Source: Candidatus Levyibacteriota bacterium (GTDB lineage Bacteria > Patescibacteriota > Microgenomatia > Levybacterales > UBA12049). From it: a stretch of 64,000 nucleotides of DNA. Location: the NCBI GenBank assembly GCA_038254115.1, contig JBBSGK010000004.1:4227-68226 (forward strand), read 5' to 3'. The translations under genes were made by a program, and so were the position numbers. Of this stretch, positions 6,930 to 57,078 are shown one piece after another; position 1 is the first letter of the stretch; every line of letters starts with the position of its first letter. The notes beneath the pieces are model-generated. The model saw nothing but the letters and a program-made list of their open reading frames with translations. It had not been told where the DNA came from and did no database searches.

Positions 6930-6952
6930 GTTTCCTCCCTTCGGTCGGTCAA

Positions 6953-6983
6953 GTGCAAAGTGCAAAGTGCAAAGTGCAAAGTG
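6953..6983. repeat. heptanucleotide tandem repeat (GTGCAAA) x4 plus a partial copy, in the rplK-rplA intergenic region
   Basis: Directly visible as gtgcaaagtgcaaagtgcaaagtgcaaagtg. Confidence 0.9.
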
Positions 6984-7039
6984 AAGGAATTTTTGTTTTT
7001 AATTATTTTTATTAAATTTAAACTTTTCATTTTTAACTT

Positions 7040-7462
7040 TTAACTTACTTCAACCCCCATTGATCTTGCAGTTCCGGCTACAATTCTTGCTGCCATTTCT
7101 ACGTCATCTGTATTCAGGTCTTCCATTTTGTCCTTTGCGATTTGGCGGGCCTGATCCATGGTGAGTTTGCCTATTTTTTCCCGTCCAGGTTTTTGTGATC
7201 CTTTTTCCTGGCCCATTGCTTTTTTGATCAGCTCGGCAACAGGGGATTTTTTGGTGATGAAAGAGAAAGTCCTGTCTTCATAAACAGTAATCACAACAGG
7301 GATGACATTGCCTTTCTGATCAGCAGTCTTATCATTGTAGGCTTTGACAAACTCCATGATGTTAAGACCATGTGGCCCGAGAGCAGTTCCGACAGGCGGT
7401 GCTGGTGTTGCTCCTCCTGCAGGTAATGCGATTTTAATTAATGTTTTTATTTTCTTAGCCAT
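7040..7462 (-). CDS. rplK: 50S ribosomal protein L11
   Basis: 140 aa with the L11 signature [43 protein letters not shown]... Confidence 0.93.
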
Positions 7463-8977: not shown

Positions 8978-9199
8978 ATGGAGCGTATATTAAGAGAAGG
9001 TCATGTTAAGGGAGATGTTATAAGAGTCCGTAGCGCTGGTAATAGAGTTAAGGGAACGGTTGATATGGGTGAAACAGGGCACATAGAAGTTTTATCATCA
9101 GATCAGGCCAAATGGCAATATGATGAGGACGTGGCAAAAAGACGTTCACGGCAGGGAAACGCTCGGCAACAAGGTAGGGGAAGAAGGGGTGGGTCCTAA
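8978..9199 (+). CDS. small Arg-rich basic protein, hypothetical
   Basis: 73-aa ORF with an Arg/Gly-rich C-terminus (RRSRQGNARQQGRGRRGGS). No recognisable family. Confidence 0.35.
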   Translation: MERILREGHVKGDVIRVRSAGNRVKGTVDMGETGHIEVLSSDQAKWQYDEDVAKRRSRQGNARQQGRGRRGGS

Positions 9200-9253
9200 T
9201 TCTTATTTCTCTATCTTTGCAAAAGGAGCAAGAAACATTATAATATCCACATA

Positions 9254-10530: not shown

Positions 10531-10927
10531 TTTTATTTGCACTTTTTGCAGAAAAAGTGCCCAAAACTGCCGCCGGGTCTAGCTCCAGCTTTTTGAAATC
10601 TCACTCGTTCCCTAAAAGAGCCAGTCTTCGCTGCGCTTGCTTTTCCTCTTTTCCTGCCTGCCGGCAGACGTTCACTCATTCATTTCTCATGCAGTCGCTC
10701 GAATCGGCGGATACTATTTAGGCCTACCGTAATTCGGCAATTCGAGCATGCGTTAAAGAAATATGACTAATGAGCGTTAAGAAAACTGAAAAGTGAAGTG
10801 AAACTGAACGTAGTTTTTAGCGAAGAGGAAATATTTCTAGCACGCGCAGACCTGCCGACGCTTTTCGTTCTTTGTGCGCACAAAGAATAATAGAAAAGAA
10901 ATATTGCTGCAAAAAGTGCAATAAAAA
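10531..10927. mobile_element. MITE-like non-coding element of about 397 bp with 21-bp terminal inverted repeats
   Basis: The left end TTTTATTTGCACTTTTTGCAG (10531-10551) and the reverse complement of the right end CTGCAAAAAGTGCAATAAAAA (10907-10927) match at 19 of 21 positions. The interior carries no consistent ORF. A roughly 150-bp internal segment (10566-10716) recurs at 30866-31010. Confidence 0.5.
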
Positions 10928-12689: not shown

Positions 12690-13256
12690 TTGACCAAGCT
12701 ATTTATTCCAATTCTTCTCGGAACTGTACGCCCCAAGCGTGAATCCATAAAAGCCGCAAATTTGATTGAGAAAGTAGGAAAGACGATTAAGGAGATAGAA
12801 GTTTCATTAGTCGATCCGAAGGATTACAATTTTCCCTACGATGGCAATGATCCTGAGAACAAAGACCCGCGCTATTCAAAGCTGACAAAAAAAGCTGATG
12901 GATTTTTTATAGTGACACCGGAATATAATCACAGCTTTCCCGGAACTTTGAAAAGAATGCTCGACTCAGAGCTCAAAAATTACATCCATAAGCCTGTTGC
13001 ATTTGCCGGTGTTTCCAATGGAATTTTTGGGGGAGCCCGGGCTATTGAATCGCTCACCCATACAGTACGTGAGATGGGGCTTGTTCCTACTTTTTCAGAT
13101 GTCTATTTTCCGCAAATTCAGAATCTATTTGATGAAAAAGGAGAGATAATTGATAAGGGATATGTGAAAAGAATTGAGAGGGGATTTGCCGAGCTGATCT
13201 GGATGAGCAAAGCGTTGAAGTGGGGACGGGAGAATCTGGAAAGTATTTATCACTAA
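12690..13256 (+). CDS. NADPH-dependent FMN reductase (flavodoxin-like fold)
   Basis: ...FFIVTPEYNHSFPGTLKRMLD... is the NADPH-dependent FMN reductase signature. The 3' end (ELIWMSKALKWGRENLESIYH*) is repeated twice downstream. Confidence 0.8.
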   Translation: MTKLFIPILLGTVRPKRESIKAANLIEKVGKTIKEIEVSLVDPKDYNFPYDGNDPENKDPRYSKLTKKADGFFIVTPEYNHSFPGTLKRMLDSELKNYIHKPVAFAGVSNGIFGGARAIESLTHTVREMGLVPTFSDVYFPQIQNLFDEKGEIIDKGYVKRIERGFAELIWMSKALKWGRENLESIYH

Positions 13257-13921
13257 GAAGTTGCAAATTCAGGCATTGGTATATCCGCAAAGCGTGGTAC
13301 AAGTTCAGGATTAAGTTCCGGATCCCGGACAGCTCTATTTATAAGTATCAAAGATTCTGCAACATTTCTTTGCAACTCTTCAATTTGATACCATGGGCTT
13401 TCTTCATCCCCAAGTGTGAATCCAGCACCATTTAGCCCTAGGTCTTGCAGCGATTCACGATCCAAGACTTTACCGTACTGGTGGTCAGAATGGTAATTTA
13501 TTTCATGTAGTGGTGTCTCATCAGGTTTAAAGCTGTAATTAATTGTTATAGTACGCATGTCATCCCACTTCGCATCGTCATAACTAACATTCCTGCTTGG
13601 CCTCCCATAAATTTCGGCAACTATCCTGCCGCTTCCATATAATGGTAAAGTAGCTGCTCCAAGATTAACTGGTGTTGAGAAAGCTCTTTTGTTATCTTCA
13701 TTGCCAATGACTTTTAAAAGATCGATTCCTCCTTCGACTAATGATTGTTGTCTTTCAAGAGCAGCAATTTGAAACCGTCTATCAGCAGGATCAATCTCGC
13801 CGTTTTTGACTTTATGATGAGTTTCTGCTCGTTTGAGATGCACTCTCTTTTCTATCATTTGAGCCCTGAGTCTTTCGGGATTCATAAGTATATAGTATAT
13901 CACATAAATGCAATATAGCAA
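13253..13921 (-). CDS. hypothetical protein (cassette gene 1; Arg-rich)
   Basis: 222-aa ORF, convergent with the FMN reductase, stop overlapping its stop. No family recognised. Confidence 0.55.
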   Translation of the reverse strand: MLYCIYVIYYILMNPERLRAQMIEKRVHLKRAETHHKVKNGEIDPADRRFQIAALERQQSLVEGGIDLLKVIGNEDNKRAFSTPVNLGAATLPLYGSGRIVAEIYGRPSRNVSYDDAKWDDMRTITINYSFKPDETPLHEINYHSDHQYGKVLDRESLQDLGLNGAGFTLGDEESPWYQIEELQRNVAESLILINRAVRDPELNPELVPRFADIPMPEFATS

Positions 13922-13976: not shown

Positions 13977-14072
13977 TTTGCCAGGCGAATCGAAAAAGTT
14001 TACACCGAGCTGATCTCGTTGGCAAAGAGTCTGAAATGGGGACGGGAGAATTTGAAAAGTATTTATCACTGA
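13977..14072 (+). pseudogene. degenerate duplicate of the FMN-reductase 3' terminus (fragment B)
   Basis: In-frame fragment RIEKVYTELISLAKSLKWGRENLKSIYH* versus genuine RIERGFAELIWMSKALKWGRENLESIYH*. Roughly 80% nt identity with 13165-13256. No upstream remainder of the gene. Confidence 0.7.
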
Positions 14073-14872
14073 GCATCGGGATCTTGCGGATTCTCTTCAT
14101 CAGAAATTGGATTAAGCATCTCCCGGAGCTTGCGTCTTGCTCTCATCAGTTTTAATCTGACTCCGTCTTCGCTAGTACCGAGAACATCTGCGATCTCTTG
14201 TATTGAAAAAAGTCCACTTTCAACAAGATTGACTACAATACGAGGGTCAAATATGACATGTTCAGTATGGTTTGGTGAATCCGAATCCGCATTATTTTTT
14301 TGTTTTTTATTATAATATTGTTTGGCTACTTCTTCTCCTAAAGCATTTACTCTGGTTTTTAATGTATCTAATTCCGGAATCTCCTCTAAGCTACTGCATA
14401 CCACGTTTAAAGCTTCAATGATATCACTTTTTAGATTACCCCTCCTGGGCAAATGGGGCAAAAGGGTATATCCAGCACTCACTAATAAATCAACGCGGTC
14501 ATGAGGACTTATGGAATCATCTTCAGTTTTAAGTGCTTTCAAATACATCTTTGCTAAAATACTGGGCGCTACTTTTTTTTGATTCAATGGTATCATTTCA
14601 AGTAATTTTAAAGCTCCTCTTCTTTGGCGGATAATCCACGGATTTTCAGTTTGCCCACTTATACCAGAAAGCAACTCTCTAGTTAGATTCGCAGTTTGCC
14701 CGTTTGACCTCTCAGAATAATGATCCAATTCTGTCCTGATACCGCTCATTAGGAGCTTGCGTTTCGGATCGCGTTCATTCAATAAAAGTGATAATAGGCT
14801 ATCTTTTTCTAGGATTCCTGCGACTAAAATACGATGGGGCTGCATTCTTAATTCTTTTCTCTCGTATTGCAT
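14066..14872 (-). CDS. hypothetical protein with a C-terminal sigma-70 region-4-like HTH (cassette gene 2)
   Basis: 268 aa. The C-terminus LFSIQEIADVLGTSEDGVRLKLMRARRKLREML resembles sigma-factor region 4.2. Its stop overlaps the fragment B stop. Confidence 0.55.
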   Translation of the reverse strand: MQYERKELRMQPHRILVAGILEKDSLLSLLLNERDPKRKLLMSGIRTELDHYSERSNGQTANLTRELLSGISGQTENPWIIRQRRGALKLLEMIPLNQKKVAPSILAKMYLKALKTEDDSISPHDRVDLLVSAGYTLLPHLPRRGNLKSDIIEALNVVCSSLEEIPELDTLKTRVNALGEEVAKQYYNKKQKNNADSDSPNHTEHVIFDPRIVVNLVESGLFSIQEIADVLGTSEDGVRLKLMRARRKLREMLNPISDEENPQDPDAQ

Positions 14873-14903: not shown

Positions 14904-14954
14904 ATGTCAAACGGATCGGAGGGAAGGGAGAATTTGAAAAGTATTTATCATTGA
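14904..14954 (+). pseudogene. second, shorter degenerate duplicate of the FMN-reductase 3' terminus (fragment C)
   Basis: MSNGSEGRENLKSIYH*. It matches fragment B at 27 of 28 nt over GGGAGAATTTGAAAAGTATTTATCA. Confidence 0.6.
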
Positions 14955-14958
14955 CTCA

Positions 14959-15621
14959 TCAATTATCATAAACCCTTACTGCAATATCCGGATTTCCGTA
15001 GACTAACGCAGCATCACAAGATCGGAACCAAATATCCAATTGTGTACCGTAACCGTATGTATCATCAATTATAAATCTGTGACCTGCCATCGGACCGGAT
15101 AGGACATCTACATGTGCCCTTTGTGGTTCATCGTTCATGGCAATATCTCCTTCTTTTGCCAATCCCACACCTGAGTTTGTGTCACAATATGCAGTTGATT
15201 TTACAGTACGATCGTGAAAGGTAGAGGATGGATTAGGACTAGAGGCCAACGGATAGGAATCTGTTGTGCTAGCTGAGGTAGGTTCAGTGAAGGTCGGCTC
15301 GGTTTTAGTCGCCGTTTCTTTTGGGGGTGGTGCGGTTATTTCGGGTGAAGCTGTTGGGGGAGGAGCTACAAAAATGGTACTTGTAGATGTATCAGGATTT
15401 ACAAAAATTGTTGTTGAAGTTGGAATTGTACGGGAGGTTGGTTCTACCGCACGCAGGCCTGATGTCACAATAGTTGCACGGTTGTCTACGTGTCTTGCAG
15501 CTGCAACACCTGCGGCTGATTCGGTTAGTGAAACAAATAACATGGCTGAGCGGAATGTTTTTGATCTAAAAAGCCTATTTATCCTATCGGAACGAGCTCC
15601 TTGTTCATGACTTATTCTCAT
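14959..15621 (-). CDS. hypothetical secreted/anchored protein with a Pro/Thr/Ala-rich linker (cassette gene 3)
   Basis: 220 aa. N-terminal hydrophobic segment AMLFVSLTESAAGVAAA, PT-rich stalk, and an approximately 90-aa C-terminal domain. Confidence 0.5.
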   Translation of the reverse strand: MRISHEQGARSDRINRLFRSKTFRSAMLFVSLTESAAGVAAARHVDNRATIVTSGLRAVEPTSRTIPTSTTIFVNPDTSTSTIFVAPPPTASPEITAPPPKETATKTEPTFTEPTSASTTDSYPLASSPNPSSTFHDRTVKSTAYCDTNSGVGLAKEGDIAMNDEPQRAHVDVLSGPMAGHRFIIDDTYGYGTQLDIWFRSCDAALVYGNPDIAVRVYDN

Positions 15622-30760: not shown

Positions 30761-30865
30761 GGATAAGATGGATTATAGCAGATTTATTGTGTACTTTTGG
30801 CAGCAAATGTATGCAAAACTGTTTTTTTATATGTTCTTTGTGTGGACAAAGAACCAAAGCCACCG

Positions 30866-31010
30866 CCAAGTCTAGCTCCAGCTTTCGGAATAGCACTCGC
30901 TCATTAAAAGAGTCAGTCTTCGCTACGCTTGCTTTTCCTCTTTTTCTGCCTGGCGGCAGACATTTTTTCGCTTATTTCTCATGCAGTCGCTCGAATCGGC
31001 GGATAATGGT
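30866..31010. repeat. second, partial copy (about 85% identity over about 150 bp) of the MITE-like element interior
   Basis: GTCTAGCTCCAGCTTT...CAGTCTTCGCT(A/G)CGCTTGCTTTTCCTCTTTT...CTGCCTG(G/C)CGGCAGAC...TTTCTCATGCAGTCGCTCGAATCGGCGGATA is shared with 10566-10716. Both copies are in the same orientation. Overlapping ORFs differ in frame and content, so the segment is non-coding. Confidence 0.6.
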
Positions 31011-37001: not shown

Positions 37002-37928
37002 ATGTATTGTTATAATGTGAATGTGCAATTCAGTTTTGTCCCCAAAGGTCCCTTTAATTTACTAAACCAGAATAAATACTTCGGCGGTTGGCCCTCCCTC
37101 AACGATGAAAACAATGCGATAGTTCAAGCATTTCCAGTTGAGGGATGGAGCGATTCCGGAGCTGTTGTAATGGAGCAATCATCTGATGGAAAAATAAGAG
37201 GAGAAGTATTGGGTACAAAAAATTCAGAAAAAGCATGGAAGCAGGCTCTTGCAAATATTTCGCTTGATGTAGATGCAAGAAGTTGGCCTGAAGTAGGGCA
37301 ACGCGATCAGGTAATAAAAAATTTACAGGTGAAATATGATTATCTCCGTCCCATACTTTTCAATTCACCATATGAAGCAGCTGTTTCATTTATCATAGGT
37401 CACCGGATCTCAATCAAACAGGGGAGGGCATTAAGGCAAAATATTTCACAGGAGTTTGGTCAGGAGATTAAAATAGGCAATAAGTCATTTTTTGCTTTCC
37501 CAAATCCGGTTGTGATGCAGCGGATTGAAAAATACCCCGGACTTAGCGGCGAAAAAATAGTACGTCTTCAGGGGGTTGCTAAGGCTGCGCTTGAGGGATT
37601 ACTGGATAGAAAATATTTGCGCAGTATTCCGGTTGAAGAGGCACTTTCAAAGATTTGTACGATAAGGGGGATTGGCAAATTTTTTGCGCAGGGAATATTA
37701 CTGCGTGGCGCAGGGCTTAGTGATTTTGTAACAGAGGATGATATTACCCCGCAAGCAATCCAACAGTTGTACAAATTGGATCATGAACCGAATCGTGCTG
37801 AAGTGTTGGAGATTGCAGATAAATGGAAACCATACCGGATGTGGGCGACTGTCCTTATGCATGTTTGGATAAGAAGTGAGGGAGAGATAGTGAGAAGAAA
37901 CACTCCATTCAGTAAAGTAAAGAAATAA
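37002..37928 (+). CDS. HhH-GPD DNA glycosylase (AlkA-like, 3-methyladenine glycosylase II)
   Basis: AlkA-type N-terminal domain followed by an HhH-GPD core (...IRGIGKFFAQGILLRGAG...). Confidence 0.7.
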   Translation: MYCYNVNVQFSFVPKGPFNLLNQNKYFGGWPSLNDENNAIVQAFPVEGWSDSGAVVMEQSSDGKIRGEVLGTKNSEKAWKQALANISLDVDARSWPEVGQRDQVIKNLQVKYDYLRPILFNSPYEAAVSFIIGHRISIKQGRALRQNISQEFGQEIKIGNKSFFAFPNPVVMQRIEKYPGLSGEKIVRLQGVAKAALEGLLDRKYLRSIPVEEALSKICTIRGIGKFFAQGILLRGAGLSDFVTEDDITPQAIQQLYKLDHEPNRAEVLEIADKWKPYRMWATVLMHVWIRSEGEIVRRNTPFSKVKK

Positions 37929-37929: not shown

Positions 37930-38060
37930 ATGAGCGATATCCCAAATATATCTTTTCAGAAGCTGCAAGTGGCGGATATTCCCCAAATTCATAAGTGGCT
38001 TAAAGAGCCGCATGTACACGCATGGTAAGATAGGTACAAGAAAAATTCTACTGGCGGCAT
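37930..38060 (+). pseudogene. truncated duplicate of the 5' end of the downstream GNAT acetyltransferase gene
   Basis: MSDIPNISFQKLQVADIPQIHKWLKEPHVHAW* versus intact MLNSHKISFRKLEVGDIPQIHKWLKEPHVHEWYDRDKKNS. The 28-nt block ATAAGTGGCTTAAAGAGCCGCATGTACA is identical. A C-to-A nonsense change turns TGGTAC into TGGTAA. Confidence 0.7.
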
Positions 38061-38963: not shown

Positions 38964-39524
38964 ATGGAGTGCTACAATATGCATATGCTTAATTCTCACA
39001 AGATATCATTCCGGAAGCTGGAAGTTGGGGATATTCCACAAATCCATAAGTGGCTTAAAGAGCCGCATGTACATGAATGGTACGATAGGGACAAAAAAAA
39101 TTCGCTTGAAGAAGTTACCGCGGAGTATACCAAATACATAACAGGGGAAGACAAAATGGATGGATACTTGGTGTGTATTGAAAATAAAGCAATAGGGTAT
39201 ATCCAGAAATACAGGATCTGGGACTGGCCTGAGTTTGCAAAAGCTTTAGGCTATGATAAGTCCACAGTAGCGATTGATATATTTATAGGAGATAAGAAGT
39301 TTATAGGAAAGGGTTTGGGATGTTGTTTTATTAAAAAGTTTCTAAAGGAAATAGTTTTCAAGGAAGAGGGGATAAGGACATGTCTTATTGATCCCGAGCC
39401 GGAAAATAAGCGTGCAATAAAGTCTTACGAAAAAGCAGGATTCCGATATGTCAAAACCCTAGATATCCCACCAGACCCGGGGCTTACTTATTTGATGGAG
39501 ATAAGGAAAGAAGACGCCAAATAG
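38964..39524 (+). CDS. GNAT-family N-acetyltransferase (aminoglycoside-acetyltransferase-like)
   Basis: GNAT core ...IGDKKFIGKGLGCCFIKKFLKEIVF...NKRAIKSYEKAGFRYV. The likely true start is the ATG at 38985 (MLNSHK...), just after a TACAAT box at 38971-38976, which implies a leaderless mRNA. Confidence 0.85.
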   Translation: MECYNMHMLNSHKISFRKLEVGDIPQIHKWLKEPHVHEWYDRDKKNSLEEVTAEYTKYITGEDKMDGYLVCIENKAIGYIQKYRIWDWPEFAKALGYDKSTVAIDIFIGDKKFIGKGLGCCFIKKFLKEIVFKEEGIRTCLIDPEPENKRAIKSYEKAGFRYVKTLDIPPDPGLTYLMEIRKEDAK

Positions 39525-42686: not shown

Positions 42687-42750
42687 TTAGTCGTTAGCTG
42701 TTAGTCATTAGTCGTTGGCTAAAGACAAAAGACCAAAGACCAAAAGCTAA
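42687..42750. repeat. heptamer tandem repeats in the tRNA spacer: (TAGTCRT)x4 followed by (AAAGACC)x3
   Basis: ttagtcgttagctgttagtcattagtcgttggctaaagacaaaagaccaaagaccaaaagc lies between tRNA-Tyr and tRNA-Thr(TGT). Confidence 0.6.
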
Positions 42751-47097: not shown

Positions 47098-47931
47098 TTA
47101 CGACTTGAAGATATTTATTATTTCTTTAATCTCAGGATAGCCGTTGAGAAAGTCTTTAACACTCATCGGTTTGCCGCCTTCGACTTGTATTTTTTTCTCC
47201 GGTAATAACTTTATTCTTAATTCTTTATTCTTAATTTTTACTATTGTCCAGACAGCCGGCCAGGGATAATAAGCCCTTATCATGCGGTCAAGTTTATCTT
47301 TACTTGGCAAGTTTTCTATATCTATCTGTCCATCAGATTTGCTCAAGTGTTTTGTGAATGTCGCTTCATGGTGATTTTGTTCACTCCATGACAATTCATC
47401 TTTAACATAACTCTTCAATATCTTTTCAATTAGTTTTGCGCCTAAAGCGAATAATTTGGTATGAAGAGTGTCCGTGGTGTCACTATCTAGAATATTCATT
47501 TTTTCCTGTGCGAGAATAGGCCCATGGTCTACATCTTTGTCCAGAACTATGAGGGTTGTTCCTGTTTCTTTCTCGCCATTTATAATTGCTGTCTGGACGG
47601 GAGTCGGGCCCCGGTACGATGGTAGAAGTGAAGGATGGATGTTCACAATTCCTTTTGGAAAAATGGATAAAAGACTTTGAGGTACGATACGGCCAAAATA
47701 ACCTAGCACAGCAACTTCTGCATTCATATCTTTTAATTTTGAGAGAAGATCTTCAGAATTTAAATCTTTCACAGAAATAAATGAGATATTGTTTTTTATA
47801 GCGTAGTGGGGGACTTCGTCAATTTTATTTGCTTCTGTGGTTACAATAAGCGAGAGGTCAAAATTTTCATTGAGCATTTTTATCACAGGGATTACATGTT
47901 TGGAGGAACCAAAAAATACTGTTTTTATCAT
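47098..47931 (-). CDS. fmt: methionyl-tRNA formyltransferase
   Basis: N-terminal formyltransferase domain VFFGSS...IVNIHPSLLPSYRGPTPVQTAIINGEKETGTTL, plus a C-terminal domain. Confidence 0.9.
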   Translation of the reverse strand: MIKTVFFGSSKHVIPVIKMLNENFDLSLIVTTEANKIDEVPHYAIKNNISFISVKDLNSEDLLSKLKDMNAEVAVLGYFGRIVPQSLLSIFPKGIVNIHPSLLPSYRGPTPVQTAIINGEKETGTTLIVLDKDVDHGPILAQEKMNILDSDTTDTLHTKLFALGAKLIEKILKSYVKDELSWSEQNHHEATFTKHLSKSDGQIDIENLPSKDKLDRMIRAYYPWPAVWTIVKIKNKELRIKLLPEKKIQVEGGKPMSVKDFLNGYPEIKEIINIFKS

Positions 47932-49441: not shown

Positions 49442-51745
49442 TTATTTTCCCCAGATCTTTAAACTATCTTGTACTTGTTTGTCCTGTAGGTCGATGTTTT
49501 TCAGAATATATTGATATGTATTTATTGCTTTTTGATTATCTCCCACTTCGTGGTAAAAAAGGCCCAGGGCAAAGTATGCATCGCGATAGTCAGGCTTGAG
49601 TTTTATGGTATGCTCCAGGATCTCAATTCCTTTTTTGGGGCCCATTGTTTGTCCTGCAAGTACTCCATAGTTGTAGGATATTTTGGCATCATTTGGCGCA
49701 AGCTCCCGGGCCTTTATGATGGAGCTTAGAGCTTTGCCATAATAATTTTTTTCATTGTCCTTCCCACTCTGCGCAAGTGTATAGAAAAGTCTTACGCGGT
49801 TTTTCCAGTAGACAATATTGTTGGGATGAGTATTTATGACATTGTCACTTATTGTGATTGCATCCCGCGATAACTGAGCTGCTCCTGATGCGTCTTTTTG
49901 AAGATATAAAGCAGATGCCAGGGTGCCCAGATTTATGGATAGTTCATCTTTATAAACAGGCTCATTTGGCTCTGCATTGACCGCGTTTTGGAGAGGGGTA
50001 ATTGCTTCCTGATAACTACCTACTTTATCCAGACTTGAACCATTTGCGTAATTCAGATCAGCGCTCCAGTAGCTAAAAAGGTTCTGAAGGAAGAGAGAAG
50101 AAGTAAGAAGTAAGGCTACTAGCAGAATCCATTGGATGATCGAGGTTTTAGATGGGACAGAAGGCTCATCGGAGACAGAGGGAAAGCTTAATACTTTTTG
50201 GGGATTGAGTATTCCGGATAGTATGAATATGAATGCAGGAATTAGGAAAAAGTAGAGATTGATTATTACAACCGAGAATCCGAAGAAGTTGGAAACCAAG
50301 ATTGAAACCCACCCCGCGAATAGAGCAGTAATCAGAATACTCGGAATACTCAGAGAACCAGTTGATCTGACCTTCAGATTTTCAGATGATCTGAGCGGAC
50401 TGTCATTCTGAGTTTTCAGAGTTTTCTGAAAAACTTGAAAAATAAATAATCCAATGATTGCTAGATAGCTTCCCAGACCAAATGCTCCCGTTGTCGCCAG
50501 ATAATTTAGGTATTCATTGTGGGCCTTGTTGTACAGATAATCCCATTCCGAAGTGACATTGTGTTCCACTGGCCGGTATCTGTAATAGGCAAAAGCAAAT
50601 GTCTCAACACCTGTCCCGATAATCGGATTTGCCTTCCATGCATCTATTGCCCCGCGCCAAACCAAAAGACGGATTTTGCCGGAATCAGTTCCTCCGAGTT
50701 CTCCGGCAGCTGGTAATTCGTGGGTTGAAGTTGGATTTGATGATTTTATTTTGTTCAATTCAGGCAAAGTGAATTTTGAAAGTTGTGAAATAGGAACGCC
50801 CGAAAAGAAATTGAAAACTATAAATATCAGATTGAATAGCAGAAAGTATTTTAGGAAATTTTCTTTGAGATATTTTTTGAAAAATAGTATTGCCCAGAAG
50901 ATAATATTTGCAATCCAAAAACCTATAAAACCGCCTCGTGTATCGGTGTAGGTGAGGCAGGCATAAAATAAAGAAGTAAGAAGTAGGAAGTAAGAAGCAA
51001 GGAAAAAATTTCCTGAACCATAATTCTTGATTCTTGATTCTTGATTCTCATGGGATGATTCTGATTTAGATTTTAGATTTCTTAGAAAGTAGGAAATTGA
51101 AAGAGGTATTAAAACTGACATGTATGCAGCAAGCCAAGCCGGCTGACCAAGAGTTGAGAAGATACGGATTGTGGGTTTGAATGCATCAGTCCAGCATGAT
51201 GTATCAAAACTTCCCCTGAAAATATAACAAGTAGGGTCCCAACCAAAATGGGATGGAAATCCCCAAAGAGCAACAATCAAGCCTGAAAATAAGCTAACTT
51301 TTAAGACTTTAAGTACGTGTTTGGTTTCCAGATTGGAGACAAAGGCGTAGTATAGAAATATATAAGAGATGATAGATAACAGGCCGCCGTTAAATCTTGA
51401 GTAATAACCCCAGAGCGAGACATGCGGATCAAGGGAAAAAATTGTTGAGATTATTTGAGAAGCGAGGAAAAGAATTAGCGGAATATCAAGAGGTGTACGT
51501 TGGATGAAGATTCTTTTTTGAAGAATCATTTTTGCTATCCAGGAAGCGCCGATTATGGTTGTTATTCCAAAAGTAAGCCACATTTTTGGAAATTCAAAAA
51601 GTTCTGAAGGGGATCCGCTAAAAACAATGGGGACTAGGAGGAAGAGGGCGTAGAAGGAGAATTCGATAATGCGGTTGCAAAAATTTATAATTTTCATTAG
51701 CGGGATGATGTACGGCAGATAAAACTTCATTTTCCATGGTATCAT
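49442..51745 (-). CDS. O-antigen-ligase-like polytopic membrane protein with C-terminal TPR repeats
   Basis: 767 aa, at least 12 TM helices with a Wzy_C-like core, then TPR-like repeats (...AINTYQYILKNID...). It contains in-frame heptamer-repeat inserts. Confidence 0.75.
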   Translation of the reverse strand: MIPWKMKFYLPYIIPLMKIINFCNRIIEFSFYALFLLVPIVFSGSPSELFEFPKMWLTFGITTIIGASWIAKMILQKRIFIQRTPLDIPLILFLASQIISTIFSLDPHVSLWGYYSRFNGGLLSIISYIFLYYAFVSNLETKHVLKVLKVSLFSGLIVALWGFPSHFGWDPTCYIFRGSFDTSCWTDAFKPTIRIFSTLGQPAWLAAYMSVLIPLSISYFLRNLKSKSESSHENQESRIKNYGSGNFFLASYFLLLTSLFYACLTYTDTRGGFIGFWIANIIFWAILFFKKYLKENFLKYFLLFNLIFIVFNFFSGVPISQLSKFTLPELNKIKSSNPTSTHELPAAGELGGTDSGKIRLLVWRGAIDAWKANPIIGTGVETFAFAYYRYRPVEHNVTSEWDYLYNKAHNEYLNYLATTGAFGLGSYLAIIGLFIFQVFQKTLKTQNDSPLRSSENLKVRSTGSLSIPSILITALFAGWVSILVSNFFGFSVVIINLYFFLIPAFIFILSGILNPQKVLSFPSVSDEPSVPSKTSIIQWILLVALLLTSSLFLQNLFSYWSADLNYANGSSLDKVGSYQEAITPLQNAVNAEPNEPVYKDELSINLGTLASALYLQKDASGAAQLSRDAITISDNVINTHPNNIVYWKNRVRLFYTLAQSGKDNEKNYYGKALSSIIKARELAPNDAKISYNYGVLAGQTMGPKKGIEILEHTIKLKPDYRDAYFALGLFYHEVGDNQKAINTYQYILKNIDLQDKQVQDSLKIWGK
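50971..51049. repeat. roughly 80-bp imperfect palindromic repeat element: (GAAGTAA)n, spacer, (TTCTTGA)n, in frame in the ligase-like gene
   Basis: aagaagtaagaagtaggaagtaagaagcaagg...aaaaaatttcc...ttcttgattcttgattcttgattctc. A second copy is at 55201-55267, and a half-copy (gaagaagtaagaagtaagg) at 50096-50114. Confidence 0.6.
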
Positions 51746-51746
51746 A

Positions 51747-52901
51747 TTGGAAAAACGTGGGCAAGCTGATAGAATAGGTTTAATTATGAATCTCTTGAAT
51801 AGTTTCTACGGTCTTTTTTCTCACGATATCGGTATAGATCTCGGCACTGCAAATACTCTTGTTTTTGTCCGGGATAAAGGGATTGTGATCCGTGAACCGT
51901 CAGTTGTCGCGAGGCAAAAAAAGAGCAAACAAATCATCGCGATTGGAAGTGAGGCCAAGAAAATGCTTGGCAAGACACCTGCTTCTATAGTTACGGTACG
52001 TCCGCTTCATGGGGGAACGATTGCGGATTTTGACGCGACTGTTTCGATGATCGCTTACTACATCAAGCAAGTCCATGAGATGGGGGGAAAATTGACCGGG
52101 ATTTTTGCCCGTCCCAAAGTGGTGATTGGGATTCCATCTGCAGTAACCGAGGTTCAAAGACGTGCTGTCTGGGAAGCAGCTCTCTCAGCAGGAGCCCGGG
52201 AAGCGTATCTTATTGAAGAGCCGATGGCCGCGGCAATTGGTGAGAATATATCAATTTTTCAGTCAAAGGGCATAATGGTAGTCGATATAGGCGGCGGGAC
52301 TACAGAAATCGCGGTTATCTCGCTTGGTGGAATAGTAGTCGGCCGGTCAATGAAACTCGCCGGAGACGAGATGGATCAGGCGATCCTGCATTATGTGCGG
52401 CTTCGCCATGGAATGCTTCTTGGGGAGAGTACAGCTGAGGATATAAAAATAAAAATAGGAAGCGCTGCCCAGAAAAGCGCAAAAGCGCAAAAGCGAAGAA
52501 GCGAAGAAGGGGAAGAAGAGAAGGAAGAGATTAGCCGTACGGCGAAGGTTATGATTGTGAGGGGACGGGATATTGAGACTGGTCTTCCAAAAAGCCAGAA
52601 GATAACTGAGCCTGAAATACGTGAGGCATTATCTCCGATAATCAATCAAATAATTCAAGCCGTTGCCGATGTTTTGGAGGAAACGCCGCCTGAGCTATTG
52701 CCTGATATTCTCGAGCAGGGAATTCTTCTCACAGGTGGGGGCGCCAATTTGGAAGGCTTTGATCAGTTGATGGTTGAACGGGTGCATCTGCCTGTTTTTG
52801 TTTCATCTGATCCGATGACCTCTGTTGTCCGCGGAACGGGAAAAGTTGTGCAGGATGAAAAACTCCTCGAGCGGGTGAAGGTAATTGGGGGATTGAGGTA
52901 G
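51747..52901 (+). CDS. mreB: rod-shape-determining protein MreB (with an approximately 35-aa charged insert)
   Basis: Actin-fold motifs DLGTANT, VIGIPSAVTEVQRRA and DIGGGTTE. The insert QKSAKAQKRRSEEGEEEKEE is encoded by the heptamer repeat (AAAGCGC)n(GAAGCGA)n at 52474-52512. Confidence 0.93.
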   Translation: MEKRGQADRIGLIMNLLNSFYGLFSHDIGIDLGTANTLVFVRDKGIVIREPSVVARQKKSKQIIAIGSEAKKMLGKTPASIVTVRPLHGGTIADFDATVSMIAYYIKQVHEMGGKLTGIFARPKVVIGIPSAVTEVQRRAVWEAALSAGAREAYLIEEPMAAAIGENISIFQSKGIMVVDIGGGTTEIAVISLGGIVVGRSMKLAGDEMDQAILHYVRLRHGMLLGESTAEDIKIKIGSAAQKSAKAQKRRSEEGEEEKEEISRTAKVMIVRGRDIETGLPKSQKITEPEIREALSPIINQIIQAVADVLEETPPELLPDILEQGILLTGGGANLEGFDQLMVERVHLPVFVSSDPMTSVVRGTGKVVQDEKLLERVKVIGGLR

Positions 52902-52921
52902 GAATAAAATTGTTATCCTGC

Positions 52922-53476
52922 TCATGCAGCCGGATTGAGCGCTATCCTACCGGTACGCAGTCCAAAGAAAAAATCTTCCGCTTTTGCCCGTTCATTTTCT
53001 GTGAGTCTGGCCAGGCTTTCGGCAGTTGAAGCATCAATTCTCGCACCGGTCATCATGATAGGAAGAGCTTCCATTTCGTCTACACTCAATTCACGTGAGC
53101 CTAGAGGAATATGGAATGTTGTTCCGTCTTCTTCTGCAACAACATAAGACTTTCTTTCCATGGATGAAGGTCCAATCCCATCTTTACCAGGAATAGGAGT
53201 AAAGGTTGACTTGACAGTTTGAGGACCATCCTCAAACATTACACCGGAACGTGTTAAACCAACTCCTGCTGTATTTGATTTGGCGTTGGGATCCACATAA
53301 TTGAGGCGATATCCACCATCTGATCCTCTGACTTTTATTCCTTCTTTCGCAGACTTTAAATCTCCTAACCCACCATAAAATAAGCTGATGGCCATTCTTC
53401 TTGCATCATCCTTTCTGCTTTGGTCTGGACTTAGTGGTCTTTCTGGTGAGCTTGCCATAATAAGTGGATGATACAT
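52922..53476 (-). CDS. hypothetical protein inserted between mreB and mreC
   Basis: Start trimmed to the ATG at 53474-53476 (MYHPLIMASSPER...). The longer ORF to 53782 overlaps a plus-strand promoter and ORF. Confidence 0.5.
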   Translation of the reverse strand: MYHPLIMASSPERPLSPDQSRKDDARRMAISLFYGGLGDLKSAKEGIKVRGSDGGYRLNYVDPNAKSNTAGVGLTRSGVMFEDGPQTVKSTFTPIPGKDGIGPSSMERKSYVVAEEDGTTFHIPLGSRELSVDEMEALPIMMTGARIDASTAESLARLTENERAKAEDFFFGLRTGRIALNPAA

Positions 53477-53500
53477 TTTTAATAACAGATTGTCAAGACT

Positions 53501-53531
53501 AGCGGTGAAGGTAATTGGGGGATTGAGGTAG
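53501..53531 (+). repeat. duplicate of the last 31 nt of mreB (29 of 31 identical), distal to the inserted gene
   Basis: AGCGGTGAAGGTAATTGGGGGATTGAGGTAG versus the mreB 3' end GCGGGTGAAGGTAATTGGGGGATTGAGGTAG at 52871-52901. Confidence 0.7.
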
Positions 53532-53534
53532 AGA

Positions 53535-53562
53535 TTGCAAATAAACAAAATTGTGGTAGAAT
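53535..53562 (+). promoter_or_regulatory. sigma-70-like promoter (TTGCAA, 16-nt spacer containing TG, TAGAAT)
   Basis: TTGCAA at 53535-53540, then TGgTAGAAT with TAGAAT at 53557-53562, followed 8 nt later by the ATG at 53571. Confidence 0.35.
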
Positions 53563-53570
53563 GCATTTCT

Positions 53571-53882
53571 ATGGGATTAGAAACACAAGATAGATTGGCA
53601 AGAGAAAGAGTACTTGCTACGCTTACATCAATGTCAAATGATGCATATCCATCAAACACACGGCATATAGCTGAAAGAATGGTTCGAGGCAAACCTACAA
53701 CGGGTGATCTGGTAACTGTTTTTCTTGCGTTGGGTCCACTTGAGGAGGAAGGAAAAGTAGAATCTGTTGTAGTTAGACACACAAATCCGGCACATATTGC
53801 TTATCGATTAACCAGAGAATCAGAGCCAAGACGTAGGCGAAAACGAAATAGAAAATGGCCAATAGAGGAAGTTAGAAGATAA
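53571..53882 (+). CDS. small winged-helix-like protein (PadR-like?) with an Arg-rich tail, hypothetical
   Basis: MGLETQDRLARERVLATLTS...TTGDLVTVFLALGPLEEEGKVESVV resembles the PadR wing (LYPALHRLEEEGLI). The C-terminus is RRRRKRNRK. Confidence 0.35.
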   Translation: MGLETQDRLARERVLATLTSMSNDAYPSNTRHIAERMVRGKPTTGDLVTVFLALGPLEEEGKVESVVVRHTNPAHIAYRLTRESEPRRRRKRNRKWPIEEVRR

Positions 53883-54049
53883 TCATCTAAAATTAAACCA
53901 AAATAATACTAGTTATTGACTAGCGGAAGAGTAATCTGTCAGGATTTGTTAAAATTCCTATTGTTCGAGCGTAGCTGACTTTCATTCGCTAAAGCCTCGG
54001 GGGGATATGCAGTTTTGAATTTACAATCAGGGAAGTATATAATACCTTT

Positions 54050-54805
54050 ATGCAGAAGAGGAAGAGTTTTTTCCCCACGTTTTTAATCTTTTTTATACTT
54101 TCTATATTTATTTTTCTCTTATCCCGCTTAGGATTTCTCAACGGATTGACAGGATTTTTGGAGAGGGCAACAGTACCTCTGCAACGTGTAATATTTGGAG
54201 CAACACATTCCGATAAATGGGGAGAGTCTGCAAAATTGAAGGATGAAAATAGTAAATTGGCCTCACAAATTGTAAAGCAATCAGAATTGAAGCGTGAAAA
54301 TCAGGCACTCCGTGATCAATTCCAGACTTCAAATCCGGCGCCCAGAATACTTTTACCGGCAAAAATTATAGGTAACAATGATGGCAGTCTAACAATTGAT
54401 AAGGGACGCGCGGACACTCTAAAAAAAGGTGATGTAGTAGTTATAAAAGACAATCTAATCGGCAAGGTGGAGAAAATTTCAGAACACCTCGCAACTGTAA
54501 GCCTTCTAACTTCAAACATAATCTTTACTGCAAAAACGGCCAAAACAGGATCAGTCGGAATACTGAAAGGCCAATCAAATGGCATGATACTTGATAATGT
54601 TCTGCTCAATGATCATCTTGAGAAAGACGATTTGGTCATAACAAAGGGGGATGAAGATTTATATGGAAGTGGATTTCCGCCTGATCTGGTTGTCGGGAAA
54701 ATTGTTTCGGTAAATAAAAAAGCAAGCAATCTTTTCCAAAGCGCTGAAGTTAGGAGCTTAATTGATTTTTCCAAACTCGAAACAGTATTCATAATTACGA
54801 AATAA
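54050..54805 (+). CDS. mreC: rod-shape-determining protein MreC
   Basis: N-terminal TM helix, coiled coil (ENSKLASQIVKQSELKRENQALRDQF), then beta-rich domains. It lies downstream of mreB. Confidence 0.85.
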   Translation: MQKRKSFFPTFLIFFILSIFIFLLSRLGFLNGLTGFLERATVPLQRVIFGATHSDKWGESAKLKDENSKLASQIVKQSELKRENQALRDQFQTSNPAPRILLPAKIIGNNDGSLTIDKGRADTLKKGDVVVIKDNLIGKVEKISEHLATVSLLTSNIIFTAKTAKTGSVGILKGQSNGMILDNVLLNDHLEKDDLVITKGDEDLYGSGFPPDLVVGKIVSVNKKASNLFQSAEVRSLIDFSKLETVFIITK

Positions 54806-54811
54806 CTTTAA

Positions 54812-55222
54812 ATGGAGATATTATTTTTCATTCTACTTATAATTTCTATTTTCGTGGAATCAACTTTTATAAACTTGCCCCTAGTATTCATTCTTCTGGT
54901 TGTGTTTTGTATCCTCAAAAAAAGCGGCTACGTATTTTTGAGCGCTTTTTTAGCAGGAATTTTACTGGATCTTACAGCAGTCCGGTTTCCGGGAACATCC
55001 AGTATTTTTTTCCTCCTCGTTCTTTTAATGATCATGCTATATCAACGCAAATATGAAATTAATTCTTATCCTTTTATACTTGTCAGCTCGTTTGTTGGAA
55101 CGTATATGTATTTGATTATTTTTAATAAGCATGCTAATTTATTACAGCCATTTTTATGTACCATTTTAGCATTGGTGCTATACTCAGTTCTGCAAATACG
55201 GGAAGTAAGAAGCAATAATTAA
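54812..55222 (+). CDS. mreD: rod-shape-determining protein MreD-like membrane protein
   Basis: 136 aa, four to five TM helices, positioned between mreC and mrdA. Confidence 0.6.
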   Translation: MEILFFILLIISIFVESTFINLPLVFILLVVFCILKKSGYVFLSAFLAGILLDLTAVRFPGTSSIFFLLVLLMIMLYQRKYEINSYPFILVSSFVGTYMYLIIFNKHANLLQPFLCTILALVLYSVLQIREVRSNN

Positions 55223-55284
55223 GAGTTAAGGTCTTGTGGTAAATTTTTCCTTGATTCTTGATTCGTTATTATTAATTCATATCT

Positions 55285-57078
55285 ATGAAAACAGGATACG
55301 CCTTTGGTGAGCATATAAAAACAGAGAAGATCAAAAAAAGAAGATATTCGTCAGGTCCGTCGGATTTTAACTCGCGCGAATTTTTTCTTCCCCTTGCACT
55401 TTTTGGAGCAGCCGTTCTTCTGATATCCAAACTATTTTATCTGCAAGTGGTTAAGGGTTCTGATTTCCGGGCGCTTTCTGATTCCAACCGAATAAGGACT
55501 CAAATTATTCATGCTCCGCGGGGTGCTATATTTGACCGGAACGGTGTCCCGCTTGTAATAAATAATCCGGGATTCAGGCAGGTAAATAAAGACAAATCAA
55601 CAATCTTGACTCGGGATCAGGCGCTGCCTCTTATTGCAAAAGGGGATAAAAATCTCGAGGTAGACTCTCTCAGGAATTATGTCTTAAAAGACAGTCTGAG
55701 CCATGTTATCGGATACATCGGCCAGGTCTCCAAGCCCGAGCTCGATTCAGGGGAGTTTAATGATTACCGTGGTACTGATTGGATAGGTAAAAGCGGAATT
55801 GAGAGGCAATATGAACACATATTGAGGGGCACAGACGGTAAGCAACTGGTTGAAGTCAATGCAATGGGTAATAAAGTGCGTCCACTTGGCACGACCGATC
55901 CAATTTCAGGGCAGGATATCACACTGACGATTGATTCGAAGCTTCAGCAAGTTGTATTTGACGCGACAAAAGATGTAAAAAAGGGCGCTGTTATCGTCTC
56001 CAGCCCGACAGGTGAAATTCTGGCAATGGTTTCGCGTCCTTCTTATGACCCCAATCTTTTTACCCTGGATAAAACTTATAAAGTTGCAACGGATGCAGCG
56101 CATCAAAATGTAAGTGAGATACTTCTGGATTCACAAAATCAGCCGCTTTTGAACAGGGCAATTGCAGGTACATATCCTCCCGGCTCAACATACAAAATAG
56201 TGACAGCCGCCGCCGGACTTAATGAAAATATTATTGATGAGAATTACAAGATACGCGACAGCGGTGTAATAAAAGTCGGGGAGTTTTCTTTTGCGAATTG
56301 GTACTATACGGGTTATGGCAGGACAGAGCCGGGTGAGCTAAATGTAGTCCGTGCACTGGCTCGGTCCAATGACATTTTTTTCTACAAACTTGCTGAAAAA
56401 GTAAGTCCTGACAAGCTATCTGAAATGGCAGTAAAATTTGGTTTGGGAAATAAATCGGGCATTGACTTGGGAGGAGAAGCAAAAGGTTTGGTTCCTACTG
56501 AAAAATGGAAAAAAACTGTAATTGGGGAGGGATGGTACTTGGGAGACACTTATCATTATGGAATAGGACAGGGATTTTTATTGACAACACCTCTTCAAGT
56601 TAATGAATGGACAGAGGTAGTTGCAAATGGCGGGAGTCTGTACGAGCCACATTTGCTGAAAGCTCAAAGTGAAAAGCGCAAAAGCGCAAATATTTTGAAT
56701 GATAAGACGATTTCTTTGATCAGGCAGGGAATGATTGAAAGCTGCTCAACGGGAGGTGTTGCGTGGCCATTATTCAAGTTTAAAGTTCAAAATCCAAAGT
56801 TAAAAGTTGATGGCAAAAATATTTTGGAAGTAAAAGAAGCCAGTGAATCAGCAAAATCTGAAAGCTTGAGAGAGATTGCGGTGGCGTGCAAGACTGGAAC
56901 CGCCCAGCATGGAGGGGAGACGACCCTGCCTCATGCATGGATTACCCTCTTTGCTCCTGCATACAATCCCCAAGTTGTAGTAACTGTTTTGAATGAGGAG
57001 AGTGGGGAAGGCTCAAATGAGGCAGCCCCAATAGCTAAAAAGATATTGGAAGCCTATTTTACAGAAACACCTCAATAA
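55285..57078 (+). CDS. mrdA: penicillin-binding protein 2 (peptidoglycan D,D-transpeptidase)
   Basis: N-terminal anchor, dimerisation domain, and transpeptidase motifs SxxK (PGSTYKIV), SxN (ARSNDIFFY) and KTG (ACKTGTAQ). It contains (AAAGCGC)x2 at 56672-56689. Confidence 0.9.
   Translation: MKTGYAFGEHIKTEKIKKRRYSSGPSDFNSREFFLPLALFGAAVLLISKLFYLQVVKGSDFRALSDSNRIRTQIIHAPRGAIFDRNGVPLVINNPGFRQVNKDKSTILTRDQALPLIAKGDKNLEVDSLRNYVLKDSLSHVIGYIGQVSKPELDSGEFNDYRGTDWIGKSGIERQYEHILRGTDGKQLVEVNAMGNKVRPLGTTDPISGQDITLTIDSKLQQVVFDATKDVKKGAVIVSSPTGEILAMVSRPSYDPNLFTLDKTYKVATDAAHQNVSEILLDSQNQPLLNRAIAGTYPPGSTYKIVTAAAGLNENIIDENYKIRDSGVIKVGEFSFANWYYTGYGRTEPGELNVVRALARSNDIFFYKLAEKVSPDKLSEMAVKFGLGNKSGIDLGGEAKGLVPTEKWKKTVIGEGWYLGDTYHYGIGQGFLLTTPLQVNEWTEVVANGGSLYEPHLLKAQSEKRKSANILNDKTISLIRQGMIESCSTGGVAWPLFKFKVQNPKLKVDGKNILEVKEASESAKSESLREIAVACKTGTAQHGGETTLPHAWITLFAPAYNPQVVVTVLNEESGEGSNEAAPIAKKILEAYFTETPQ

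Follow-up and report, generated by a model that had tools for sequence, protein, structure and literature searches.

The analysed DNA (64,000 nt of contig JBBSGK010000004.1 from a Candidatus Levyibacteriota bacterium, hereafter the window) contains a gene for an O-antigen-ligase-like membrane protein next to the genes mreB, mreC, mreD and mrdA. Two copies of a small imperfect palindrome, built from tandem arrays of 7-nt units (heptamers), are located at this locus. Copy A lies inside the ligase-like gene, copy B lies at the mreD-mrdA junction, and a half copy is present elsewhere in the ligase-like gene (Table 1). In the original prediction both copies were described as (GAAGTAA)n, a loop and (TTCTTGA)n in the same order, and the sequence reads as described. 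The proposed construction from heptamers was recovered by Tandem Repeats Finder and by our own scan, which detected tandem AAGAAGT (4.4 units), ATTCTTG (3.7 units) and CTTGATT (2.1 units). The predicted ability to form a hairpin was found as well, as the arm units of copies A and B are 5/7 complementary and the plus strands of both copies fold with z-scores of about -2.

Table 1. Coordinates of the repeat elements and of the genes that carry or flank them, numbered from the first base of the window
Feature	Position	Strand	Description
Copy A, whole element	50971..51049		(AAGAAGT)n left array, loop, (ATTCTTG)n right array
Copy A, purine-rich array	50971..51001	+	AAGAAGT x4.4; minus-strand coding (ACTTCTT)n = SYFLLLTSLFY, N-terminal half of a predicted transmembrane helix
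Copy A, inner mini-palindrome GGAAAAAATTTCC	51001..51013		at the hairpin tip
Copy A, pyrimidine-rich array	51023..51049	+	ATTCTTG x3.7; coding strand (AAGAATC)n = ENQESRIKN, low-confidence loop, pLDDT <50
Half copy, LLVALLLTSSLF	50086..50114		decayed (GAAGTAA)n array in a transmembrane helix; site 2 of the ligase-like gene
Host gene of copy A and half copy	49442..51745	-	767-aa Wzy_C (O-antigen-ligase-like) + TPR membrane protein
Copy B, whole element	55201..55279	+	mreD-mrdA junction; left heptads GAAGTAA GAAGCAA TAATTAA GAGTTAA GG, loop, right heptads CCTTGAT TCTTGAT TCGTTAT TATTAAT
Predicted mRNA stem, 15 bp	55217..55263	+	AAUUAAGAGUUAAGG / CCUUGAUUCUUGAUU, 17-nt loop; mreD stop codon in the 5' side
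mreD stop codon TAA	55220..55222	+	provided by copy B; last six codons (EVRSNN) also array sequence
mreD	54812..55222	+	short hydrophobic protein; assigned by position after mreC and length, no Pfam hit; C-terminus overwritten by copy B
mrdA (PBP2)	55285..57078	+	directly downstream of copy B
mreB	51747..52901		neighbour in the same locus
mreC	54050..54805		neighbour in the same locus
(AAAGTGC)n...(AACTTTT)n	6948..7046		between rplK and rplA
(TTAGTCG)n...(AAAGACC)n	42687..42744		spacer between tRNA-Tyr and tRNA-Thr
Heptamer array in fmt	47209..47240		AAGAATW on the coding strand, in frame
MreB-loop array (AAAAGCGC)n/(GAAGAAGC)n	52470..52523	+	octamer array, in frame, hypervariable loop between IGSA and VRGRD
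Exact 20-mer GAAAAGCGCAAAAGCGCAAA	56671..56690	+	in frame in mrdA; identical to the MreB-loop copy at 52472-52491

Copy A reads aagaagtaagaagtaggaagtaagaagcaagg / GGAAAAAATTTCC / attcttgattcttgattcttgattctc on the plus strand. As had been claimed, it is translated in frame within the host open reading frame (ORF), and its minus-strand translation is ENQESRIKNYGSGNFFLASYFLLLTSLFY, corresponding to residues 233–259 of the ligase-like protein. An independent assembly encodes the same protein (P0001), which is identical except for the called start, so the arrays are not an assembly artefact. In the AlphaFold2 model (mean predicted local distance difference test score (pLDDT) 77.6), the protein fold is kept with copy A translated. 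The hydrophilic arm and the loop fall in segment 228–243, where pLDDT is below 50, and the hydrophobic arm falls in helix 243–267, the same helix that was flagged by the hydropathy scan. According to this model, the A-rich arm would form a disordered hydrophilic loop and the T-rich arm would form the first half of a transmembrane helix. As an A-rich arm encodes a hydrophilic peptide and its T-rich complement a hydrophobic one, a hairpin at a loop/helix boundary is easily tolerated. As RNA, copy A folds at -20.1 kcal/mol on the plus strand (z -2.2) and at -13.8 kcal/mol on the minus strand.

Copy B opens at 55201 with GGAAGTAAGAAGCAA...AAATTTTTCC TTGATTCTTGATTC, in which TTGATTCTTGATTC occupies 55251–55264, and both arms run on as decayed heptads to about 55279. 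It was predicted to overlap the mreD stop and the spacer, and it indeed includes the stop codon and occupies the whole 62-nt spacer ahead of the mrdA ATG at 55285. In the stem, positions 55217–55231 pair with 55249–55263, and the pairing is AU-rich with G-U pairs present. The sense strand folds at -16.7 kcal/mol (z -2.1), and the antisense strand at -3.2 kcal/mol. The 21 nt that separate the stem from the mrdA ATG are AU-rich, and no Shine-Dalgarno-like sequence was seen in them. A scan of 49–58 kb for promoter and terminator consensus found none at copy B (55200–55280), and the totals in this region were not above those of shuffled sequences. Copy B does not fit an intrinsic terminator, which has a G+C-rich stem with a U tract behind it, as the stem is AU-rich with G-U pairs and no terminator-like site is present. 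At the gathering threshold, Rfam reported four tRNAs only in the whole window and no match at the element.

The mreD-mrdA junction carries a heptamer hairpin in three lineages, namely the window, the relative locus L001 with (AATTTTC)n...(TTGAAAA)n and the relative locus L002 with (AAAAGTC)n...(TTTTGAC)n. The three hairpins are different, and each of them rewrites the MreD tail and stop. No heptamer hairpin was found at this junction in L003, L004, L010 and L011. In L003, L004 and L010 the MreD tails are GKKLKKRD-like and mrdA starts 0–18 nt further on; L011 has a different MreD tail and an overlapping mrdA start. Judged from these comparisons, copy B appears to be confined to the window, at a junction that is recurrently hit. 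A nucleic-acid function of the elements, for example as an intercistronic mRNA hairpin at copy B, would be possible without being required.

The repeats are far more frequent in the window than expected from its composition. GAAGTAAGAAG with at most one mismatch occurred 8 times (1.46 expected), and TTGATTCTTGATTC with at most two mismatches occurred 9 times (1.77 expected); none of 100 shuffled sequences reached these counts. From the single-arm rates, both arms in order within 60 nt are estimated to occur at about 0.001 places by chance, and two places were observed. Units of the AAGAAGT/AAGAATC type occur at 50086, 50971, 51023 and 55201, and in relatives they are found at the two ligase sites and in fmt.

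A census was made over 209 kb, consisting of the window and eight loci of conserved synteny, in which mreB-mreC-mreD-mrdA lie next to the ligase gene, def and fmt. Three short loci (L017–L019) were added for pairwise DNA comparison. At period 7, 127 arrays were found versus 9.1 in shuffled sequences, an enrichment of about 14-fold. Period 8 gave 9 arrays versus 1.9, and periods 10–12 gave at most 1; periods 6 and 9 were also in excess, as is usual for coding DNA. The 127 arrays comprise 68 distinct canonical units. Adjacent arrays were at least 5/7 complementary in 26 of 36 pairs (72%), versus 25% for random unit pairs, and 11 of 25 paired elements lie inside long ORFs. The elements are 67–80 nt in size. 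When twelve copies were aligned, as the original prediction had suggested for copies A and B, only the arrays matched, and the loops differed and were conserved neither between copies nor between orthologues. The mismatches over 26 arm pairs comprised 30 transversions and 14 transitions, which equals the random 2:1 ratio, and a G-U pairing signature of RNA-level selection was dropped on this ground. By sequence comparison, the element appears to be one family among many heptamer-array hairpins that pervade a Levybacteria-like lineage (Patescibacteria/Microgenomates). Members of the class lie at junctions and ends of genes, in spacers between tRNA genes, in surface loops of the conserved proteins MreB, PBP2 and Fmt, and where loop and helix meet in a membrane protein.

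Credible taxonomic labels among the homologues of the ligase-like protein read Patescibacteria or Microgenomates. Among complete genomes the nearest is a Candidatus Levybacteria chromosome of 1.14 Mb (L001), whose ligase-like orthologue is 65–69% identical. At the position of copy A (site 1), the window shares its element with L001, L003, L004 and L012, both in location and in reading frame. Other relatives carry (AAAATGG)n (L002) or other palindromic heptamer elements (L010, L011 and the group of proteins P0012, P0013 and P0015) at this site, and no element was found there in the more distant orthologues compared. Absence of the coding copy from orthologues, which the original prediction had proposed to check, was thus not what we found, as copy A is shared by several of them at 60–66% protein identity. 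For this reason copy A is an old resident and not a recent insertion. At site 2, the full element (NQELR...LLLTSYFLLL) is present in L001 (P0002), L002 (P0004), L010 (P0019) and L011 (P0003), and the window has the half copy only. The half-copy motif GAAGAAGTAAGAAGTAAGG at 50096–50114, which had been recognised as related, falls in modelled helix 536–574 of the ligase-like protein, and the half copy is the remnant of this second site.

The arrays are conserved at the nucleotide level. The DNA of the T-rich arm (TTA CTT CTT ACT TCT TAC TTC TTA CTT CTT) is identical among genomes whose flanking silent sites are scrambled. At identical residues of the ligase orthologues, codon identity was 84% in arrays versus 44% elsewhere; for the window and L001, it was 16/17 in arrays versus 230/472 elsewhere. 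Since 7 is not a multiple of three, each base of the unit takes all three codon positions in successive units. Both (GAAGTAA)n and (AAGAATT)n have a stop in one translation frame, and L002, L010, L011 and L012 carry a C variant (AAT CAA) exactly where T would make TAA. A fully complementary partner of the coding arm would be (AAGAAGT)n, in which TAA occurs, and this would account for the imperfection of the palindrome within ORFs. Among about 20 near-identical orthologous proteins no difference in array length was found, a comparison that frameshifted alleles would escape as they are not full-length. P0011 and P0013 are about 95% identical and carry different elements at site 1. A cassette swap between them was rejected, as the divergent tract is about 200 nt long, includes flanking synonymous sites and corresponds to homologous recombination. 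A further protein, P0132, equals P0011 over the first ~300 alignment columns and P0013 after them, and is either a natural recombinant or derived from a chimeric assembly.

The strict two-arm pattern was searched in its exact form, by which decayed copies are missed. In 185,579 GTDB species genomes it was found at five places: the orthologous Levybacteria site, one site in Peribacteria, two in Acidobacteriota (GC 67–68%) and one sigma-factor C-terminus. The last match (L005) is coincidental and stems from RSKKLRDFLD, the conserved C-terminus of sigma-70. The orthologous site was the only strict match in the complete relative genome of 1.14 Mb. Three more places were found in JGI metagenomes (GC 43–69%), and two of them (L015 and L016) lie directly upstream of an ATG. 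Together, the two collections gave seven non-orthologous strict matches. The GAAGYAA/TTCTTGA pair thus occurs in Peribacteria and in genomes of 60–69% GC, and it forms an AT-rich island in the latter. Because the same arm pair is found at non-homologous places in other genomes, the element behaves as a dispersed family. The cross-phylum matches were not taken as proof of horizontal spread, as the search was for an exact pair and the genomes themselves are full of varied heptamer arrays. The Acidobacteriota loci L006 and L009 (GC 67–68%) hold many such arrays, for example (AGGGGCT)x10, (ATCCCCT)x5.7 and (GGGATTC)x4, which extends the richness in heptamer repeats to Acidobacteriota.

Hallmarks of transposition were also looked for. 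Comparison of the window junction with the empty junctions of L003, L004 and L010 revealed no target duplication or sharp boundary, which is a weak test as these relatives are distant. No transposase, and no RAYT or IS partner, was detected among the 30 window ORFs scanned, of about 60. The 12-copy alignment contained no conserved GTAG/CGTC head, with GTAG occurring only as a variant unit in copy A, and no terminal inverted repeats distinct from the arrays were seen.

Other elements of the class were found in the window and in its relatives (Table 1). The (AAAGTGC)/(AACTTTT) arm pair between rplK and rplA is also present at two non-orthologous sites in L010, giving three unrelated loci in all. 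This hairpin overlaps the listed rplA start and the rplK stop. The listed L1 ORF has 307 aa and its Pfam L1 domain begins only at residue 134, with the upstream part at 6665–6965 on the minus strand; either the protein is extended at its N-terminus by a long stretch rich in lysine and glutamate, or the true start lies downstream of the listed one. An (AAGAATY)n array is also present in fmt of L001, the two arrays corresponding at the level of the gene. In PBP2, relatives have (AAAAATC)n at the place of the 20-mer with the same protein length, so the window lineage has replaced the unit there. The two pairs of shared repeats, copy A with copy B and the MreB loop with PBP2, have similar offsets of about 4.2 kb (50973 to 55202, 4229 nt; 52472 to 56671, 4199 nt), and a few other 10–12-mers share this offset. 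The common offset could be a coincidence, or it could result from templated repair if the two stretches regularly come to lie side by side. An intergenic family of five copies in L001 is based on AAATTTT/AAAATTG heptamers, and its members are up to 83% identical over 63 nt. L001 and L003 have the same (AACTTAT)4.5 array at their mreC-mreD junctions, where it lies outside called genes.

A different small hairpin is associated with the arrays in relatives. It is GC-rich and 21 nt long (ACCTGCCTGCCGGCAGGCATG / CCTGCCTGCCGGCRAGGCAGG, translated LPAG...), and it is the sole length difference between two ligase genes that are 98.4% identical (L019 versus L018). It is located at unrelated places in three genomes (L004, 11555–11574; L011, 8669–8688; L003, 14356–14375), inside or at the centre of heptamer arrays, and its removal restores the array. 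It is also present in fmt of a third genome. A search of the window that allowed up to 3 mismatches did not find it.

On balance, we consider that the element is probably a quasi-palindrome of two heptanucleotide arrays, made and homogenised by misalignment and templated repair and filtered by coding, with an optional role of the junction hairpin. Slipped-strand or transient misalignment at replication would create the arrays and keep them uniform. Fold-back or ectopic templated repair, and not a transposase, would account for the second arm and for the spread of the unit pair to nearby sites. Within ORFs, a version would survive only if it is free of stops and its net length is divisible by three. 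As the 7-nt unit would be read in all frames, a homogenised array would have no silent sites. Such an array, together with the TAA in the perfect complement, would explain both the codon-level conservation and the imperfect complementarity. The swap of the unit at constant length in PBP2 and the hypervariable MreB loop support this explanation. Also in its favour are the excess of period 7, the complementarity of neighbouring arrays, the orthology of copy A, the codon identity and stop avoidance in the arrays, the place of copy A in the protein model, the turnover of hairpins at the mreD end, the small number of strict matches and the reports on heptamer repeats in other bacteria. Several observations weigh against it. 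Slippage alone leaves unexplained why the same imperfect arm pair recurs at non-homologous sites, as in copies A and B, in (AAAGTGC)/(AACTTTT) at its three loci and in GAAGYAA/TTCTTGA in other phyla. The identity of (AACTTAT)4.5 in L001 and L003 is a further difficulty, because coding constraint cannot act at a junction outside called genes. Ongoing slippage is not demonstrated, because the near-identical orthologues have no unit-number polymorphism. Finally, of 11 coding copies, 10 have a better fold on the antisense than on the sense strand, which could hint at strand-specific selection.

The element could instead belong to a non-autonomous mobile family, whose arms and loop are moved as a unit by a trans-acting hairpin enzyme and placed in gene junctions as well as, in frame, within genes, similar to repetitive extragenic palindromic (REP) sequences and REPINs, transposable elements of the miniature inverted-repeat type (MITEs), Rickettsia palindromic elements (RPEs) or small dispersed repeats (SDRs). 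Under this explanation, the same two arms would be expected in the same order at unrelated sites, as is seen 4.2 kb apart and at the second site of the ligase gene, and the same imperfect pair could reach unrelated phyla, including the AT-rich islands in 60–69% GC genomes. The second arm pair common to non-orthologous loci in two genomes, the five-copy family of L001 and the 21-nt GC hairpin, which is truly indel-polymorphic in relatives, are also in its favour. However, the elements have no target duplication, conserved termini or conserved loop, no transposase was among the scanned ORFs, and the complete relative genome has a single strict match. Copy A is orthologous over deep divergence and not patchy, the difference between P0011 and P0013 is a recombination tract with flanking synonymous changes and not a precise swap, and the arm mismatches have the ratio that random decay predicts. 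Mobility of this kind is therefore regarded as unlikely, although it retains some weight.

Selection could also act on the nucleic acid itself, with the element serving as an mRNA stabiliser or processing site, as an initiation context without Shine-Dalgarno sequence, or as a protein-binding array. The strong preference of copy B for folding on the sense strand (-18.1 versus -4.4 kcal/mol) and the pyrimidine arm directly upstream of an ATG in copy B, L015 and L016 are consistent with such a role, as are the hairpins at the mreD-mrdA junction in three lineages, the identical perfect arrays at a non-coding junction of the divergent L001 and L003, and the conservation of array codons at silent sites. 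Repeats in Beggiatoa likewise overlap upstream stops and precede starts without Shine-Dalgarno sequence (PMC4679880). In contrast, four relatives have no element at the mreD-mrdA junction, and the units at the same site vary by lineage. Copy B has neither a terminator- or promoter-like consensus nor an Rfam family, the arm mismatches have no surplus of G-U-compatible transitions, the fold z-scores of the window copies are modest, and the coding copies fold worse on the mRNA strand. A cis-acting role as the general explanation is thus rather improbable.

In a more far-reaching form, heptamer-armed hairpins would be a distinct class of very small self-propagating elements, which spread within and between phyla (Levybacteria, Peribacteria, Acidobacteriota) through a hairpin- or heptad-specific mechanism, are routinely recruited as coding modules in candidate-phyla bacteria and have their nucleotide sequence held by a function of their own. 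We consider this a long shot. If it were true, each in-frame insertion would bring a hydrophilic loop and a hydrophobic helix segment, complementary codons being opposite in hydropathy, and the elements would be a generator of membrane-protein and surface-loop variation.

Phase variation, in which gain or loss of heptamer units would shift the frame and switch the surface-glycan ligase-like gene on and off, fits a unit that is no multiple of three in an envelope-biogenesis gene, a class with known repeat-mediated switching. It is nevertheless highly improbable, as the arrays are short (3–4.5 units) and conserved in length across orthologues, the ~20 near-identical proteins have no unit-number variation, similar arrays lie in mreB, mrdA and fmt, where switching off is presumably harmful, and copy B is not placed to shift a frame. 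Chance or purely protein-driven low complexity, with unrelated copies, has in its favour that the T-rich arm encodes an ordinary hydrophobic helix and that the L005 match is coincidental, and it is effectively refuted by the two co-occurrences of the arms against ~0.001 expected per window, the largely non-coding position of copy B, the conserved silent sites of the arrays and the 14-fold enrichment of period 7.

Further repeats and irregular genes were observed in the window and its relatives. The last 28 nt of mreB (GGTGAAGGTAATTGGGGGATTGAGGTAG, including the stop; 52874–52901) recur exactly at 53504–53531, 630 nt downstream, and the two copies flank about 600 nt of ORFs without Pfam hits between mreB and mreC. 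The arrangement resembles an att-like duplication left by an insertion at the 3' end of mreB; in relatives this spot holds other cargo, for example BrnT/CopG toxin-antitoxin genes. In the L001 genome, mreB (8604–9802) is split into two called ORFs (144 + 255 aa) and the mreC region (7287–8564) into three, possibly through real frameshifts or through errors of sequencing in that assembly. About 155 nt are repeated with 88% identity at 10560–10715 and 30852–31008, each time in an intergenic region of unusual length. The repeat includes CCTGCCTGCCGGCAG, which is the initial half of the GC-hairpin motif of the relatives, has no Rfam match and could be a small RNA gene or a miniature element. A 104-nt stretch at 37945–38048, after the ORF 37002..37928, is 87% identical to 39000–39103 in the 5' part of the ORF 38964..39524 and has the appearance of a partly duplicated gene. 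On the minus strand, three adjacent ORFs (13253..13921, 14066..14872 and 14959..15621) have in common a conserved end stretch of 34–69 nt (13189–13257, 14005–14073 and 14921–14954); they look like tandem paralogues, and one of them has a weak sigma-70 region-4 match. The gene for a 963-aa Big_3_5 protein (2427–5318, minus strand) contains a perfect 42-nt tandem duplication and, on the opposite strand, many repeats with a 9-nt period (e.g. 3943–4036 and 4256–5150), which are probably glycine-rich on the coding strand.

Heptanucleotide repeats have long been known in cyanobacteria and Xanthomonas, and their origin and function are unsettled. In-frame arrays place every base of the unit at all codon positions, so coding selection, stop avoidance and nucleotide conservation become separable. 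The arrays inflate and diversify loops of MreB, PBP2, Fmt and membrane proteins in candidate-phyla bacteria and overwrite gene ends and stop codons. They could therefore mislead gene calling, alignment and analyses of recombination or selection in such genomes. Should the elements prove to propagate themselves or to have a function, few known units of this kind would be as small. A literature search on palindromic or tandem-repeat insertions in candidate-phyla bacteria gave no relevant report.

The original likening of the element to REP or MITE units holds in part. The copies are short, imperfect, dispersed palindromes that can form hairpins, and one of them lies at an operon junction. Unlike REP/REPIN sequences and MITEs, however, they lack a GTAG/CGTC head, terminal repeats and target duplication, their loops are variable, and strict matches are few. 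The high copy number of REP/REPIN sequences contrasts with two and a half copies in 64 kb, one of which is positioned in an ORF. RPEs (Ogata et al. 2000) are reportedly in-frame palindromes of ~100–150 bp with a conserved consensus, which are tolerated in genes as a peripheral peptide. Copy A resembles them in being translated in frame with the protein fold kept in the model. The present elements differ from RPEs in their size, their construction from heptamers, their unconserved loops and a consensus limited to the arrays. The SDRs of Nostoc (Elhai et al. 2008, Genome Res 18:1484) are said to be 21–27-nt hairpin-capable mobile repeats embedded in tandem heptamer arrays. The 21-nt GC hairpin of the relatives would be similar to this description, being presence-polymorphic inside heptamer arrays, whereas copies A and B have no conserved core between their arrays.

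The repeats of Beggiatoaceae share other features with the elements described here. TAACTGA repeats in this family lie over upstream stop codons and before start codons and are occasionally translated (MacGregor 2015, PMC4679880), and a protein-binding role has been proposed for them (PMC4679880). These repeats, also present in some Cyanobacteria and Bacteroidetes, are located just 5' of starts without Shine-Dalgarno sequence and over the upstream stop, as in copy B; some are translated in the stop-free orientation, and they are scattered across phyla. In contrast to the elements in the window, they are direct repeats of a single unit with one inverted case, and their occurrences in ORFs are mostly at protein ends and not in inner loops or helices of conserved proteins.

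From the sequence features, the best fit is with the families of heptanucleotide simple repeats, namely the short tandemly repeated repetitive (STRR) sequences of cyanobacteria and the inverted GGGAATC arrays of Xanthomonas. In many bacteria, heptamers are reported to outnumber other long simple repeats, and slippage of the polymerase has been put forward as their origin (Mrazek 2007, as cited in PMC4679880). About 185 GGGAATC arrays are present in Xanthomonas, among them 70–75 convergent inverted pairs; the arrays are 89–93% intergenic and variable between species (Rehm 2015, PMC4692102). Both families share with the present elements the tandem 7-nt units in typically 2–5 copies, the excess of period 7 and the occurrence of one unit at many loci, as well as close inverted pairs that can form stem-loops, lie near gene ends and vary between related species. 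The differences are that many unit families exist here (68 units in 127 arrays) with no dominant unit and that the arms are only 5–6/7 complementary. As the units are AT-rich and not G-rich, no G-quadruplex reading applies here. A large share of the arrays here lies in frame inside conserved genes, in contrast to the mostly intergenic arrays of Xanthomonas; an intergenic location is typical of such families and no strict part of their definition. What is new here is the candidate-phyla host, the many unit families, the AT-rich units and the frequent in-frame residence in conserved genes.

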